This document shows, one piece after another, positions 33,097 to 42,158 of a stretch of DNA of 47,650 nt. Position 1 is the stretch's first letter; the number at the start of each line of letters is the position of its first letter. The translations under genes and the position numbers were made by a program. The DNA is from a virus. Its lineage: Duplodnaviria > Heunggongvirae > Uroviricota > Caudoviricetes. The DNA is taken from IMG/VR virus record IMGVR_UViG_2541047798_000009; one strand, written 5' to 3'. The notes under the pieces are model-generated. The model was given only the letters and a program-made list of their open reading frames with translations. It was not told the DNA's origin and ran no database searches.

Positions 33097-34179
33097 ATGA
33101 AAAAATTAACAGTGGCAATTTCTGCTGTAGCTGCATCAGTACTGATGGCGATGTCTGCTCAGGCAGCTGAAATTTATAATAAAGACAGTAACAAGCTGGA
33201 TCTATACGGGAAAGTTAATGCCAAGCACTACTTCTCCTCTAATGATGCAGATGATGGTGATACTACTTATGCTCGTCTTGGCTTCAAAGGTGAAACCCAA
33301 ATCAACGATCAACTGACTGGTTTCGGTCAGTGGGAATATGACTTCAAAGGCAACCGTGCTGAATCTCAAGGTTCTTCCAAAGACAAAACCCGTCTTGCAT
33401 TTGCAGGCCTGAAATTTGGTGATTACGGCTCAATCGATTACGGTCGTAACTACGGTGTAGCATACGACATCGGTGCGTGGACTGACGTTCTGCCAGAATT
33501 CGGTGGTGATACCTGGACCCAGACAGATGTGTTCATGACTGGCCGCACTACTGGTGTTGCAACTTATCGTAACAACGACTTCTTTGGTCTGGTCGATGGC
33601 CTGAACTTTGCTGCTCAGTATCAGGGTAAAAATGACCGCACTGACGTAACTGAAGCCAATGGTGATGGTTTCGGTTTCTCCACTACTTATGAGTATGAAG
33701 GATTCGGCGTGGGTGCAACCTATGCTAAATCAGATCGCACTGACGGTCAGGTCGCCTATGGTAAGAGCAAATTCAATGCCTCCGGCAAAAATGCGGAAGT
33801 ATGGGCTGCAGGCCTGAAATATGATGCGAACAATATCTATCTGGCTACCACATATTCTGAAACTCAGAATATGACCGTTTTTGGTAATAACCATATTGCA
33901 AACAAAGCACAAAACTTTGAAGCAGTAGCACAATATCAGTTTGACTTCGGTCTGCGCCCATCTGTTGCTTACCTTCAGTCAAAAGGTAAAGACCTTGGTG
34001 TTCATGGTGACCGAGACTTAGTCAAGTATGTCGATGTCGGTGCTACTTACTACTTTAATAAAAACATGTCCACTTTTGTTGATTACAAAATCAACTTAAT
34101 TGACGATAGTAAGTTTACCAAAACAGCTGGTATTGATACCGACGACATCGTCGCTGTAGGTCTGGTTTATCAGTTCTAA
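33097..34179 (+). CDS. Outer-membrane porin (OmpC/OmpF/NmpC/Lc family, 361 aa)
   Basis: Signal peptide [23 protein letters not shown] then [23 protein letters not shown]... and C-terminal ...[11 protein letters not shown]-rich promoter region upstream; antisense to late transcription as nmpC is in DLP12. Confidence 0.9.
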
Positions 34180-34367
34180 TCTGACTTACGAAAAAGATAT
34201 GTTGCGGGAGGCTTTGCCTCCCCAACATATAAGTGGAGCCCTCAAGCCACTTCCTTTAGAAGCACTACCTTGCTTCTTACTATATAAACCTTCTGTTATA
34301 TATTACCCTTTATTTTGGGGGCGTTTCCACGCCCCATTTTTAATAACTTTTAGTAAATAATTGCATA

Positions 34368-38961: not shown

Positions 38962-39081
38962 TTACTCTTCCCGCTTCGCTATGAGGTTATAAACCCCGCT
39001 GATCGGGTCATACCATATGCTGCGTGGCAGCAGCTTCTGGAAGTAGCGCGGATCTGGCATTACGGTTGACTGTTGTGACAT
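38962..39081 (-). CDS. Small ORF (39 aa) coupled to the cro-like gene
   Basis: ATG sits 4 nt after an AGGTG that overlaps the cro-like stop; the start lies inside a 12-bp perfect palindrome GTGACATGTCAC. Confidence 0.3.
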   Translation of the reverse strand: MSQQSTVMPDPRYFQKLLPRSIWYDPISGVYNLIAKREE

Positions 39082-39088
39082 GTCACAC

Positions 39089-39289
39089 CTAACTATTTGT
39101 TTTCCGTAATGGAGAAAAAATGAGGCTCTCTTTAGATAATTTGAGGGTTGGTGAAACTTTAGATACCGCTTCCTCAATTCTTTCAGCCATTGCAACTGAG
39201 GGGCGCCTAAAACCCAGAGCCATCTGGTTCAGGTATGCAACGCTAGTCCCAGATAACTGTGCCAGCCGCCTCCATTCATCCGCGCTCAT
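39089..39289 (-). CDS. Cro-like HTH regulator (about 66 aa; alternative starts at 39322 or 39334)
   Basis: MSADEWRRLAQLSGTSVAYLNQMALGFRRPSVAMAERIEEA is a Cro/YdaS-type HTH; divergent from the repressor gene across operator palindromes. Confidence 0.6.
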   Translation of the reverse strand: MSADEWRRLAQLSGTSVAYLNQMALGFRRPSVAMAERIEEAVSKVSPTLKLSKESLIFSPLRKTNS

Positions 39290-39344
39290 GACTCCTCTGA
39301 TTGAGAGCAATACACTGGACATAAAAAACCCCATACTGTATTGG

Positions 39345-39416
39345 TTATTAGCAACGTGCTAACATTAGCACATGAGATCACAATACAGCAATACGCTGTA
39401 AAGCATTTAGCTAACA
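39345..39416. promoter_or_regulatory. O_R-like operator region with TTAGCA/TGCTAA half-sites
   Basis: 15-bp perfect palindrome TTAGCAacgTGCTAA (39348-39362), a TTAGCA half-site (39365-39370) and palindrome TTAGCTAA (39407-39414) between the divergent regulators. Confidence 0.55.
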
Positions 39417-39427
39417 ATGAGACAAGC

Positions 39428-39883
39428 ATGGAAATCAAAGATATTCGCTTAAAAAATCTACAGACGGTAATCCAACGCAGCGGCTTAACCCAGACAGATC
39501 TGGCGTTAAAATGTGAGATATCACCCTCACTTATAAGCCAAATAATGACTAAGCGCAGAAATATGGGAACTGCTCTCGCTAGAAAACTCGAGGGGCGACT
39601 GAGCCTATCAGAAGGATGGTTTGACATCCCCCACTCATTGCTGGATTCCCCATGGCATCTAGCTAAAATGAGGGAAAAGACTGGTGAGACCACTATTGAT
39701 GAACAGCAACTAACTAAAAGAGAGACTCGACTTATTGAGTTATTCAGACAAATGCCTGAAAGCGAAAAAGACAGGATAATCAGTGAGTTATCTGAAAAGA
39801 AACGTAATTTTGACAAACTACTTGATGAGCTAATGGCTGTTAAAGCATCAAGAATGCCGATCGACAAAGACGAAAATGAATAA
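39428..39883 (+). CDS. CI-like repressor with N-terminal HTH and no LexA-type S24 peptidase domain (151 aa)
   Basis: HTH LKNLQTVIQRSGLTQTDLALKCEISPSLISQIMTKRRNMGTALARKLE; C-terminal half is coiled-coil-like with no Ala-Gly/Ser-Lys autocleavage motifs; the track start 39341 is a TTG inside the operators. Confidence 0.6.
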   Translation: MEIKDIRLKNLQTVIQRSGLTQTDLALKCEISPSLISQIMTKRRNMGTALARKLEGRLSLSEGWFDIPHSLLDSPWHLAKMREKTGETTIDEQQLTKRETRLIELFRQMPESEKDRIISELSEKKRNFDKLLDELMAVKASRMPIDKDENE

Positions 39884-39917
39884 TAAATACAACGCACTAT
39901 AAAAAAAACAGCAAATA

Positions 39918-39989
39918 TTAGCATTTTGCTATTGTCAAGAATAACGCATAGCGCTACATTCACCTCAGCAAGTAAAAACAAGTGAGGTG
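39918..39989 (+). promoter_or_regulatory. P_L-like promoter with operator palindrome TAGCAtttTGCTA and an RBS-sequestering hairpin
   Basis: Palindrome at 39919-39931 matching the O_R motif; -35 TTGTCA (39932-39937), -10 TACATT (39955-39960); inverted repeat CACCTCA (39961-39967) / TGAGGTG (39983-39989) whose right arm contains the GAGGTG Shine-Dalgarno. Confidence 0.45.
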
Positions 39990-39995
39990 AATGTA

Positions 39996-40439
39996 ATGTT
40001 AAATGATAAACATGACTCTTATTCCGTAAACTCTCTGTTGATTTGTGCTCAAGCGGCACTATTAGGCGGTACCGCTTCAAACCATGACGTCATCAACCTC
40101 TTAGATGTTGCACAAGACATCATCTCTTCAACTATGAATTCCTTTACAGATAGTAGCGCTCCCGGCGCTAATGTTGATTTATTTACCAAAGAAGTTAGCG
40201 CTAGTAATTCCCCAGCATTATCTTTCGGTCAACGTATTCTCCAAGCGCGTAAATCAGCAAGTCTTCAACAACATCATATTGCCAGCGGTGCTGGAGTGAC
40301 TGTTCAGGCTGTTTCGTTATGGGAAAATGACTCAGCAATTCCTACTTGCGACAAAATTATCCCATTGGCAAATCTTCTTGGCTGCGATCCAATGTGGTTA
40401 CTGACTGGTGCTTATAAACAAAATCAGGAGGAAGCATAA
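39996..40439 (+). CDS. Hypothetical protein with C-terminal XRE-type HTH (147 aa) at the N-gene position
   Basis: C-terminal SFGQRILQARKSASLQQHHIASGAGVTVQAVSLWENDSAIPTCDKIIPLANLLGCDPMWLL is an HTH_XRE pattern; ATG 6 nt after GAGGTG. Confidence 0.55.
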   Translation: MLNDKHDSYSVNSLLICAQAALLGGTASNHDVINLLDVAQDIISSTMNSFTDSSAPGANVDLFTKEVSASNSPALSFGQRILQARKSASLQQHHIASGAGVTVQAVSLWENDSAIPTCDKIIPLANLLGCDPMWLLTGAYKQNQEEA

Positions 40440-40440
40440 G

Positions 40441-40632
40441 ATGAAAATGTTCAAAGGCCTCACCAACGAACCGGAAACAGCTTTTCATCACATTGCCGTA
40501 CTGCTTGAAGCGGGGTTAATCATTTCGGCTTCCGGTGATGAAGAATGTGATGAACTTTCGGATGATATCTTTTTACTGGCACAACAATACGCCAGAAGCG
40601 CATGCGATGCATTTAAGGAGCAAAGAACATGA
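40441..40632 (+). CDS. Hypothetical small acidic protein (63 aa)
   Basis: ATG 2 nt after the previous stop, AGGAGG upstream. Confidence 0.45.
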   Translation: MKMFKGLTNEPETAFHHIAVLLEAGLIISASGDEECDELSDDIFLLAQQYARSACDAFKEQRT

Positions 40633-40820
40633 TAACTCCATTAAATATTCTTGAGGAAGTGGCAGCACAAATAAAAGAGAATACATCCATGCTTGAATTT
40701 ATATTTAAGAATTCGCCTGATTCAGGAGAGACAGACGATTATTTATGTTGCCTCATTCGCTCCATGAATAAAACCTGTGAAATGGCTTACGCGTATATCG
40801 ACACACTGCGCAACGAATAA
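40629..40820 (+). CDS. Hypothetical small protein (63 aa)
   Basis: Start overlaps the previous stop by 4 nt (ATGA). Confidence 0.45.
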   Translation: MITPLNILEEVAAQIKENTSMLEFIFKNSPDSGETDDYLCCLIRSMNKTCEMAYAYIDTLRNE

Positions 40821-41004
40821 AGAAAACTCAATAAACAATCACCCATAAAAACATAACGGCCTCTGGTCGGGAATTTCCACAACCTGAAAATGGTGGTGAT
40901 GCATGAAAAACAGAAGTGCTTATAAAACCGCATTATTAATGGCTAATGCAGGATACTGGTCAGTTGCAATACTGTTTCTCAGAAAAGCATACGGGAAATA
41001 ACAA

Positions 41005-41364
41005 ATGACACATGAACCCATTAATACATATCGTCGCCGTATAGCTGTTGCGGCACTCCATCGAATAAAACGTAAAACAGGTGGTAATCTGCTTATTGTT
41101 GACCTTCCGGATGGGAACATTACGACCATAGAAATAACTGAACAGTTTATAAACCAGTTGCTGTTACGCTTCGAAGGTATTACCCGTGGTGAATTGGGCC
41201 GGGTGGAGGGTGAAACCGAAATCCACACTGCATACCAGAATGCTATCGGGATTAATCAACATACTGAATACCTGACTGAAACCGGAAAGTTAATTATAGA
41301 CAACCTTTTTCAAGAGGTTATTGATTACGCGAAAGAAAAATATATCAGCGGAGGAATTAACTGA
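41005..41364 (+). CDS. Hypothetical protein (119 aa)
   Basis: ORF in the early-left operon; coupled to the next ORF. Confidence 0.45.
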   Translation: MTHEPINTYRRRIAVAALHRIKRKTGGNLLIVDLPDGNITTIEITEQFINQLLLRFEGITRGELGRVEGETEIHTAYQNAIGINQHTEYLTETGKLIIDNLFQEVIDYAKEKYISGGIN

Positions 41365-41579
41365 TGGCTAATTTATCCCCTGTATCTGTTGTGCACGAAA
41401 AAGTGCAGATCGTTATGACAATTGAAAATGGCCAAGTCACAGGTGTCTGCAAAGTCCGCGATGGCGAGCTGATTGCCAGCATGGATACATTCATACGGCT
41501 GGCAGAAAGAGCGGGGTATCAGATAACAGCACCTGCTCAGGAGGAAACCGGTGGCATTAACAGCAACACGCATTCCTGA
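41364..41579 (+). CDS. Hypothetical protein (71 aa)
   Basis: Start overlaps the previous stop (ATGA/TGATG-type coupling). Confidence 0.45.
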   Translation: MANLSPVSVVHEKVQIVMTIENGQVTGVCKVRDGELIASMDTFIRLAERAGYQITAPAQEETGGINSNTHS

Positions 41580-41765
41580 GCGGATCCACCGGCAGGCATT
41601 GCAGGTCCTGTTGTTGTACCGATGCCGACGGATATTTCCGCATCGGATACAGCGCACCGGATATCTCAGTCTGAAGGTTAACCGTCGCTGGCGGCTGTTA
41701 TCGAAAGACGACGGCCGGAACTGGGAAGTAATGAGTCATGAACGTTATTCGGGAGAAATAAAGAA

Positions 41766-42158
41766 ATGATCGACAACCGCACCGCCAGCGCCATTGACCA
41801 GGCATTACAGAAACATGATACACCCGTCGGCCCGTTATTTTTTGTAACACGCCACGGAAGAACAAAAAAATGCCTCACTCGAAAAACGGCAATTCGTTAC
41901 CTGGCCTTCTTTATGACCACCCGCGCTTTTGAACGTTCAGGATTCCGACAACGCTATCCTGACAAGCGTTTTATCTTCAACAGGAATGAGATATGGAAAC
42001 GTGGAGAATCAACCACAGAGTATACCCGCGCACACCAGCGAACAATCAGACGACTGCGCAGACTCATCGCCAGGAAACAGTATACAGAAAAATGGTTCAG
42101 AAAATATGACACATGGAGCGCCGGATATTACGAACTGATGGCAACAAAACCATTCTGA
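41766..42158 (+). CDS. Hypothetical strongly basic protein (130 aa)
   Basis: Arg/Lys-rich ORF (…TIRRLRRLIARKQYTEKWFRKY…) suggesting nucleic-acid binding; no domain recognised. Confidence 0.45.
   Translation: MIDNRTASAIDQALQKHDTPVGPLFFVTRHGRTKKCLTRKTAIRYLAFFMTTRAFERSGFRQRYPDKRFIFNRNEIWKRGESTTEYTRAHQRTIRRLRRLIARKQYTEKWFRKYDTWSAGYYELMATKPF

Follow-up and report, generated by a model that had tools for sequence, protein, structure and literature searches.

Fold-back inhibition was reportedly described for IS10/Tn10 by Davis, Simons and Kleckner in 1985. In that system, and similarly in IS50 and IS200, sequence upstream of the element's own transcription start pairs with the ribosome-binding site (RBS) of the first gene, as is predicted for the locus described here; transcripts entering from outside are silent and the element's own transcripts are translated. 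IS200 combines a terminator against impinging transcription with a stem that sequesters the Shine-Dalgarno (SD) sequence (PMC4513863). The locus in question occupies positions 39918 to 40820 of a 47,650-nucleotide (nt) stretch of Caudoviricetes DNA (IMG/VR record IMGVR_UViG_2541047798_000009), and the whole of that stretch is called the window below. It consists of a promoter with an adjoining operator, an inverted repeat over an SD, a gene for a 147-amino-acid (aa) protein, and two small open reading frames, ORF2 and ORF3, and it directly follows a cI-like repressor gene.

The window is a lambdoid prophage that is 100% identical to a prophage of Escherichia coli VR50, integrated next to mlrA. 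The reading that we favor, with somewhat more confidence than doubt, is that the locus is the head of the repressor-controlled early-left operon of an N-less lambdoid prophage and that a fold-back stem insulates it against read-through from the cI-like gene. The 147-aa protein, ORF2, and ORF3 would then probably be early products, made only after infection or derepression.

A predicted stem over the ribosome-binding site of the 147-aa gene

An earlier note on this DNA, made from the sequence and its open reading frames, had described a 7-bp inverted repeat with the SD of the 147-aa gene in its right arm. The sequestration of the SD stands, but the repeat is longer: it is 13 bp and perfect, with arms at 39955-39967 and 39983-39995 around a 15-nt loop. 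The folding that the note had proposed as a check gave a strong RNA stem, with a predicted energy of -19.2 kcal/mol (z -6.45), and none of 200 shuffled sequences folded as well. A longer, imperfect duplex with 34-nt arms and 71% complementarity is also possible. The arm sequence has no further occurrence in the window, including the right operator (O_R) region, and the element gave no match in Rfam. A put-like antitermination RNA was considered and rejected on the lack of an Rfam match and on the position of the 5' arm within the promoter.

The transcription start was placed at about 39967, which is 7 nt past the -10 hexamer TACATT, from the consensus promoter. If the start is indeed there, the anti-SD arm lies upstream of it, and the stem is consequently possible only on transcripts that come from the cI-like gene. 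The structure-gated expression proposed in the note is thus upheld in so far as a stem hides the RBS, but the gate is probably not on the gene's own mRNA. The computed energy for opening the RBS (positions -15 to +5) is 21.6 kcal/mol on the read-through RNA versus 7.5 kcal/mol on the own-promoter RNA. In silico, the SD is therefore sequestered on external transcripts only, and the same is true of four other types of locus (b, d, f, and k) that are introduced below.

RNA initiated at the locus's own promoter would lack the 5' arm and leave the RBS open. RNA running in from the repressor gene, which would be transcribed continuously in a lysogen, would carry both arms, fold back on itself, and hide the RBS, and read-through would then yield no 147-aa protein. 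In the most speculative step, Rho would gain access to the RNA along the 444 untranslated nt, so that the rest of the operon would be protected as well. The stem would in effect stand in for the intrinsic terminator that follows cI in sister prophages and in lambda. In the window, the terminator scan found no terminator-like site between the cI stop codon and the promoter, and the fold energy of that spacer is -4.5 kcal/mol (z -0.31). A terminator-like hairpin with a T-rich tail does occur at 40154-40170 (+), inside the linker-coding part of the 147-aa gene. Terminator-like sites in the region are no more numerous than expected by chance, and this one could matter if the gene were untranslated.

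Stems and terminators across immunity types

Related loci were gathered from phage records, IMG/VR, and assemblies. A gene for a protein with a helical N-domain and a C-terminal helix-turn-helix (HTH) domain, located directly after a cI-like gene, is a common but uncharacterised arrangement, and its upstream regions fall into at least 13 types of unrelated sequence. Type a is that of the window, type b is that of Shiga toxin 1 (Stx1) phages, and type d is that of phi467. A scan of genome contigs with the family alignment returned only two irrelevant loci.

In types a, b, d, f, and k, cI is not followed by a terminator, and a strong stem covers the SD. The 5' arm falls within the promoter spacer or the -10 hexamer in types a, b, f, and k, and in type d it starts just after the -10 hexamer. 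Stems are weaker in types h and l. Across the stem types, opening the RBS would cost 10 to 23 kcal/mol on the read-through RNA versus 2.5 to 9 kcal/mol on the own-promoter RNA. A hairpin-plus-U-run terminator follows cI in types c, g, i, and j (accepted on fold energies in types i and j); these types have no such stem, and their opening energies are 4 to 7 kcal/mol. The relation between terminator and stem across the 13 types gave a Mann-Whitney p of 0.045.

The pattern of substitution was followed in the three types with the best sampling (a, b, and f). The loops vary much more than the arms, and all five substitutions in the main stems change a Watson-Crick pair into a G.U pair on the sense strand, with none disrupting the pairing. 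Judging from these comparisons, several immunity types seem to have acquired such a stem independently.

Operator and promoter

The palindrome TAGCAnnnTGCTA is present in exactly two copies in the 47.6-kb window (39349-39361 and 39919-39931), where 0.03 copies are expected, and none of 100 shuffled sequences reached two. The second copy is unchanged throughout the six sequence variants of this locus type. It is directly followed by TTGTCA (39932-39937), a 17-nt spacer, and TACATT (39955-39960), found by a promoter scan that overall was not enriched over shuffled sequences. Among the six variants, the first hexamer is TTGTCA (TTGTTA in one), TACATT and the 17-nt spacing are constant, and the spacer sequence varies. 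Two claims of the earlier note were borne out here, namely, that the 147-aa gene is the first past the cI-like gene, behind an exact copy of the operator palindrome, and that a promoter-like element is preceded by that copy. A single full operator thus abuts the -35 hexamer, with its center near -42 relative to the predicted start.

In sister types, operators overlap the promoter spacer or the start site. Type f carries its repressor operator TTTCGAAA in the loop of the stem, at the start site, and types k and l have palindromes within the promoter spacer. Because of these overlaps in types f, k, and l, the promoters are likely repressed by their cognate repressors. In the Qin prophage, DicA represses the downstream dicB operon.

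A metagenome scan with the operator plus the -35 hexamer as a 17-mer gave matches that were mostly due to chance, and it added no new variant of the locus type. Arrays of TAGCAnnnTGCTA-type sites were seen upstream of Cro-like genes resembling that of the window on two GC-rich IMG/VR contigs (L227 and L230), and this operator and repressor type therefore appears to reach well beyond the enterobacteria. On the opposite strand of the window, a promoter-like site at 40003-40030 (-) would start an RNA at about the ATG of the 147-aa gene, from where it would cross the stem toward a T8 run at 39901-39908. An antisense RNA of the RNA-OUT or sar kind from 40030-40003 was nevertheless rejected, as the other variants do not preserve the site and promoter-like sites were no more frequent than in shuffled sequences.

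The 147-aa protein

The N-terminal half of the protein matched no Pfam or NCBIfam family, and the C-terminal part is an XRE HTH domain by its match to HTH_3 (PF01381; 33.4 bits against a cut-off of 23; aa 82-135), which agrees with the earlier description of an unfamiliar N-domain joined to a C-terminal HTH. An AlphaFold2 (AF2) model has helices at aa 8-24 and 29-49 (a hairpin spanning aa 8-49; pLDDT of about 70), a disordered linker at aa 50-72, and a confident five-helix XRE HTH at aa 77-137. Foldseek aligned this HTH with P22 C2 (3jxb, 2r1j) at a root mean square deviation of 0.8 to 0.9 Å over 65 residues, with a TM-score on the target of 0.92 to 0.94 and 31% identity, and phmmer against the PDB also found P22 C2 (1adr; E 4e-6).

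The protein belongs to phrog_4836 (3e-57), an uncharacterised PHROG family that is labelled "CII-like regulator." The match to a known regulator family that the note had asked for is therefore nominal, with no CII family in Pfam behind it. Identity with lambda CII was rejected because there is only the PHROG label, there is no CII Pfam match at E up to 0.1, and the HTH is uncoupled from immunity. An N-type antiterminator was rejected as well: no N family was found in Pfam, PHROG, or NCBIfam, the protein is acidic (pI 4.7), and there is no Rfam match. Indeed, the whole prophage lacks an N-like gene, and nothing among the Pfam, PHROG, and NCBIfam matches resembled N or rexAB, as had been claimed from the sequence alone. 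Source annotations are generic ("helix-turn-helix domain-containing" or "hypothetical"), and our literature search found no functional study of these proteins.

All members of the family are acidic, with a pI of 4.1 to 5.8. The HTH domain has a net charge of 0 in the window protein and of -4 to -7 in the commoner types, compared to +5 for the N-terminal domain of P22 C2 and +8 for DicA. Some members have two tandem acidic HTH domains, as in Stx1_499 (L004 4755-5405) and ASU11 (L003 3752-4465). A survey of the regulatory regions of Stx phages reported an atypical "CI clade VIII" with a second HTH and no peptidase domain (PMC8951638). That clade may be the two-HTH form of this family.

In a cross-tabulation, 14 N-domain clusters mapped one-to-one onto 11 repressor clusters. 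The HTH types were distributed differently: four HTH types are found alongside the repressor and N-domain of the window, and nine repressor/N-domain combinations share a single HTH type. Since the N-domain tracks the repressor while the HTH types are shuffled, there must be a mosaic joint inside the 147-aa gene. By these associations, the N-domain travels with the immunity module and the HTH with ORF2 and ORF3. The uncoupling of HTH exchange from immunity type speaks against a CII-like or autoregulatory function of this domain. Between loci of one HTH type, a motif search turned up only coding-sequence matches and no non-coding motif, and no candidate operator co-varied with the HTH type. The N-domain is a candidate for the immunity-specific determinant; simple linkage to the adjacent repressor gene may also explain its distribution.

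ORF2 and ORF3

The earlier note described two tightly coupled 63-aa ORFs. Both are present and adjacent as described, with ORF2 starting 1 nt after the stop codon of the 147-aa gene and ORF3 overlapping ORF2 by ATGA. Each has a strong SD of its own (AGGAGG and AAGGAG, respectively), however, and translational coupling is thus not necessarily required. The AF2 model of ORF2 (pLDDT 88) has helices at residues 11-29 and 34-62, and a fold search with it returned only generic helical hairpins of Rop-like shape, at E > 2.

There is homology between the ORF2 family and the N-domains found in HTH proteins of the sister types c, d, e, and g (e.g., phi467 and ASU11; hhalign 98%, E 7e-14), and an HTH fusion protein (P0178) matches the family at a library-wide E of 1e-7. 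On this sequence evidence, we regard ORF2 as a free-standing member of the hairpin-domain family to which the sister N-domains belong. Homology of a small protein to the hairpin of the regulator, as in SinR/SinI, is thus found for types c, d, e, and g and is not found in the window. There, hhalign gave the N-domain a probability of 0.2% against ORF2 and 1.2% against ORF3, a comparison with ORF2-like N-domains likewise gave nothing significant, and BLASTP among the three window proteins gave no matches.

Nearly all related loci have an ORF2-like gene after the HTH gene, and most have ORF3. ORF3 is also found fused into proteins of 116 to 160 aa, and in three phage records ORF2 and ORF3 stand directly after cI without an HTH gene. 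An ORF2-like hairpin also forms the C-terminal half of proteins of 121 to 127 aa (L003 4669-5052, L017 3663-4034, and many other loci), the N-terminal part of which (MKKFENITVLHVD...) is conserved and has no Pfam match.

Alternative readings of the locus

Several observations weigh against a fold-back insulator at the head of an early-left operon. The start site, the read-through from cI, and the involvement of Rho are all steps that we infer. The start is predicted only from the consensus promoter, and if it lay further upstream, the stem would be on the gene's own mRNA. Even with the predicted start, the own-promoter RNA keeps a weak alternative pairing of the SD. An operator at -42 has class II activation geometry, and it is possible that the repressor activates the promoter. 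The terminator correlation is borderline (p 0.045, n = 13), the terminators of types i and j fail a strict rule, type d' carries both a terminator and a stem, type d shows two disruptive changes in its stem, and the inverted repeat of type e looks operator-like and misses the likely SD. With respect to the proteins, one and the same ORF2 is found behind seven N-domain classes, which leaves no covariation between partners, and the role of the 147-aa protein is something that we infer.

An RNase III-sensitive hairpin is present in the N leader of lambda, at the corresponding map position, and the stem studied here might similarly act on the gene's own mRNA. That mRNA would be transcribed from a start upstream of 39955, and the opening of the stem would depend on a trans-acting factor, on RNase III cleavage, on temperature, or on a ribosome arriving from upstream. 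The predicted stem is strong and occludes the SD and the base before the AUG, the 34-nt duplex could be a substrate for RNase III, and the phi467 type has most of its 5' arm downstream of the predicted start. We nonetheless consider this unlikely, as the only conserved promoter-like element puts the start inside or after the 5' arm, and in four or five independent types there is overlap between the arm and the spacer or the -10 hexamer, which would be odd if the arm were meant to be transcribed from there. Types with a terminator after cI also do without the stem, and the element matched no Rfam family. The other way to account for the repeat, as a DNA operator for Cro, the cI-like repressor, or the HTH of the 147-aa protein, strikes us as very improbable. 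Overlap with a -10 hexamer is a classic position for repression, and in types b, e, and h, operator motifs or sequences like them are found in the inverted repeats close to the promoter. Perfect 13-bp arms with centers 28 bp apart are unlike a dimer site, however, and the repressor palindrome is a different sequence. Read on the other strand, the substitutions seen in types a, b, and f would give A.C mismatches, and they would have no relevance for a protein site; because all of them are sense-strand G.U, an RNA structure is favored over a protein-binding palindrome. As the same arms accompany four HTH types and are absent from O_R, the stem is not expected to be the operator of the neighboring HTH either.

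The proteins could be taken as a second regulatory switch, as the note had also considered, with the 147-aa protein acting on DNA as a conventional regulator, either another repressor or an activator like CII, and ORF2 and ORF3 as SinI-like antagonists of a hairpin oligomerization domain. The HTH is of the P22 C2/434 type with plausible recognition residues, the N-domain and ORF2 are both two-helix hairpins with a 4-residue turn, and the homology of ORF2 to sister N-domains, together with its almost constant place after the HTH gene, recalls the precedents of SinR/SinI and AimX/AimC. This reading is doubtful in our view. The window N-domain has no detectable homology to ORF2 or ORF3, one ORF2 serves seven N-domain classes, and ORF2 and ORF3 occur without the HTH gene; the family is acidic, and its HTH lacks the positive charge of C2 or DicA. 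An HTH that is uncoupled from the immunity type cannot recognize sites in the immunity region such as P_RE, and no non-coding motif is common to the loci of one HTH type. The preference of the earlier note was for exclusion or abortive-infection cargo. Lambda rexAB is exclusion cargo of that kind, expressed in the lysogen, and the position beside the immunity gene recalls it; a weak similarity to MqsA/HipB-type antitoxins, confined to the HTH, and a ParE-like toxin gene 0.7 kb further down the operon might also speak for lysogen-expressed cargo or a toxin-antitoxin module. The three proteins matched no toxin or defence family in Pfam, NCBIfam, or PADLOC, however, with PADLOC giving only HTH-region matches to the RmrA and HTH_VI models, and the database matches overall (Pfam, NCBIfam, PHROGs, and PADLOC) comprise the HTH and three PHROGs, two of them of unknown function. 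No type II toxin-antitoxin system was found among the three genes, as ORF2 and ORF3 are acidic helical hairpin proteins and not toxin-like. Moreover, the promoter/operator arrangement and the fold-back stem both predict silence in the lysogen, and we give the cargo reading very little credence.

Returning to a repressor-controlled early-left operon behind a fold-back stem, our best guess, and one held with low confidence, is that the 147-aa protein modulates the switch in an immunity-specific, antirepressor-like way and is not a conventional DNA-binding repressor.

Genomic setting and neighboring genes

The 2.4-kb region from 39000 to 41400 is present in 130 of 5,426 complete E. coli genomes, and 19 of those 130 hold most of the stretch. 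The replication genes (a helicase and a toprim gene) are on the minus strand and are followed by a cro-like gene, the O_R region, the cI-like gene, and the locus under study, downstream of which a long operon on the same strand ends with xis and int. No coding sequence is annotated at the cro-like gene (39089-39289, -) in the RefSeq record of VR50. The cI-like protein matches HTH_3, its C-terminal half matches NF007257 (DicA), it belongs to phrog_5736 (6e-60), and it is without an S24 peptidase domain. The coordinates of the features are collected in Table 1.

Table 1. Features of the early-left region and their positions in the window
Feature	Coordinates	Strand	Basis
cro-like gene, 66 aa from MSADEW...	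39089..39289	-	ORF list; SD GAGGAG; weak HTH_3 match, E 5e-4
O_R copy of operator palindrome, TAGCAACGTGCTA	39349..39361	.	Between cro-like and cI-like genes
cI-like repressor gene, DicA type, 151 aa, N-terminal HTH	39428..39883	+	HTH_3, DicA, and PHROG matches
Spacer from cI stop to promoter, terminator-free	39884..39931	+	Terminator scan; fold energy
Left operator (O_L) copy of palindrome, TAGCATTTTGCTA, abutting -35 hexamer	39919..39931	.	Exact copy; invariant across variants
Sigma-70-type promoter, TTGTCA, 17 nt, TACATT	39932..39960	+	Promoter scan; predicted start ~39967
Stem 5' arm (anti-SD), TACATTCACCTCA: -10 hexamer plus 7 bases to predicted start	39955..39967	+	Folding
Stem 3' arm, TGAGGTGAATGTA: contains SD GAGGTG (39984-89), ends at -1 of ATG	39983..39995	+	Folding
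Gene for 147-aa acidic protein, pI 4.7	39996..40439	+	As in RefSeq annotation; phrog_4836
ORF2, 63 aa, acidic two-helix hairpin, phrog_4587	40441..40632	+	AF2 model; PHROG
ORF3, 63 aa, acidic, phrog_6882	40629..40820	+	PHROG

Further down the same operon, a 72-aa protein with a ParE-like toxin domain is encoded at 41551-41769 (+) (PF24732, E 3e-17), preceded and overlapped by a 71-aa ORF at 41364-41579 (+) that belongs to phrog_340. The two, both annotated as hypothetical, are likely a toxin-antitoxin pair within the early-left operon. An unannotated 32-aa ORF at 40903-41001 (+) ends in ...ILFLRKAYGK and has a counterpart ending in ...CLFLRKAYGR at the same relative position in the Stx1 phage Stx1_499 (L004 5694-5807). 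Elsewhere in the prophage, the VR50 annotation has a porin gene of the ompC family and three tRNA genes (Arg, Arg, Ile) at about 33098-34180 (+), in a block between a Q-like antiterminator gene and the lysis genes. A scan of the window found no LexA box near the locus. The sole perfect LexA-box-like site, CTGTACATAACTACAG at 495-510, lies 15 nt upstream of a gene for an 82-aa DinI-family protein (526-774, +; PF06183, E 7e-17) and belongs to that dinI-like gene.

Implications and comparison with known systems

If the fold-back reading is true, it shows how prophages that have no terminator after the repressor gene silence their early-left genes, and it does so by a compact solution in which one sequence is both the -10 box and the anti-SD. 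The gene pair heads the early-left operon in hundreds of prophages of E. coli, Shigella, Klebsiella, and Salmonella, including Shiga toxin phages, whose induction controls toxin release, and an N-domain that tracks the repressor one-to-one is a testable lead to an unknown player in the switch. A wider and tentative hypothesis, which we regard as possible rather than probable, is that the N-position gene of a large set of N-less lambdoid prophages of the Enterobacteriaceae, Stx1 and Stx2 phages among them, is an unrecognised component of the lysis-lysogeny switch. The hairpin would be the immunity-specific determinant (e.g., an antirepressor binding the cognate repressor or Cro), joined in one protein to an exchangeable acidic HTH, with free hairpin paralogues beside it, and the whole would be silenced by a terminator-free insulator that combines the -10 hexamer with the anti-SD.

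The TP901-1 MOR protein is an HTH protein encoded by the first lytic gene, and it inactivates CI. The SinR/SinI system of Bacillus subtilis has a related logic, in which an XRE HTH protein is accompanied by a small helical protein related to its oligomerization module (PMC3163267), and the phage AimC/AimX pair likewise consists of an HTH protein and a small helical partner (bioRxiv 10.1101/2025.11.23.689978). Compared with all three, the domain order is reversed here, with the hairpin at the N terminus, the proteins are acidic, and homology between hairpin and small protein is confined to the sister types. The P22 C2 and 434 repressors share the five-helix fold of the DNA-binding domain, but in the 147-aa protein that domain stands at the C terminus and not at the N terminus, has a net charge of 0 where that of P22 C2 has +5, and is not followed by a peptidase or dimerization domain.

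Like this locus, the dicA-dicC/dicB region of Qin combines a DicA-type repressor that lacks a peptidase domain with a divergent cro-like gene, and its downstream operon on the same strand starts with small proteins. The first gene here differs in encoding an N-domain plus HTH protein, and no similarity of ORF2 or ORF3 to YdfA, YdfB, or YdfC came up, without a direct comparison having been made. In lambda, t_imm and the P_L/O_L-N region occupy the same map position, face the same problem of repressor transcription directed toward P_L, and have an operator at the early-left promoter. This locus is without a terminator, N, or a nut-like element, and has one full operator at the -35 hexamer instead of three across the promoter. 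The nearest parallel in mechanism is IS10, and the differences from it, as read from the sequence, would be that the outside transcript is the prophage's own repressor mRNA, that the anti-SD is the -10 hexamer itself, and that the protected unit is a phage early operon.

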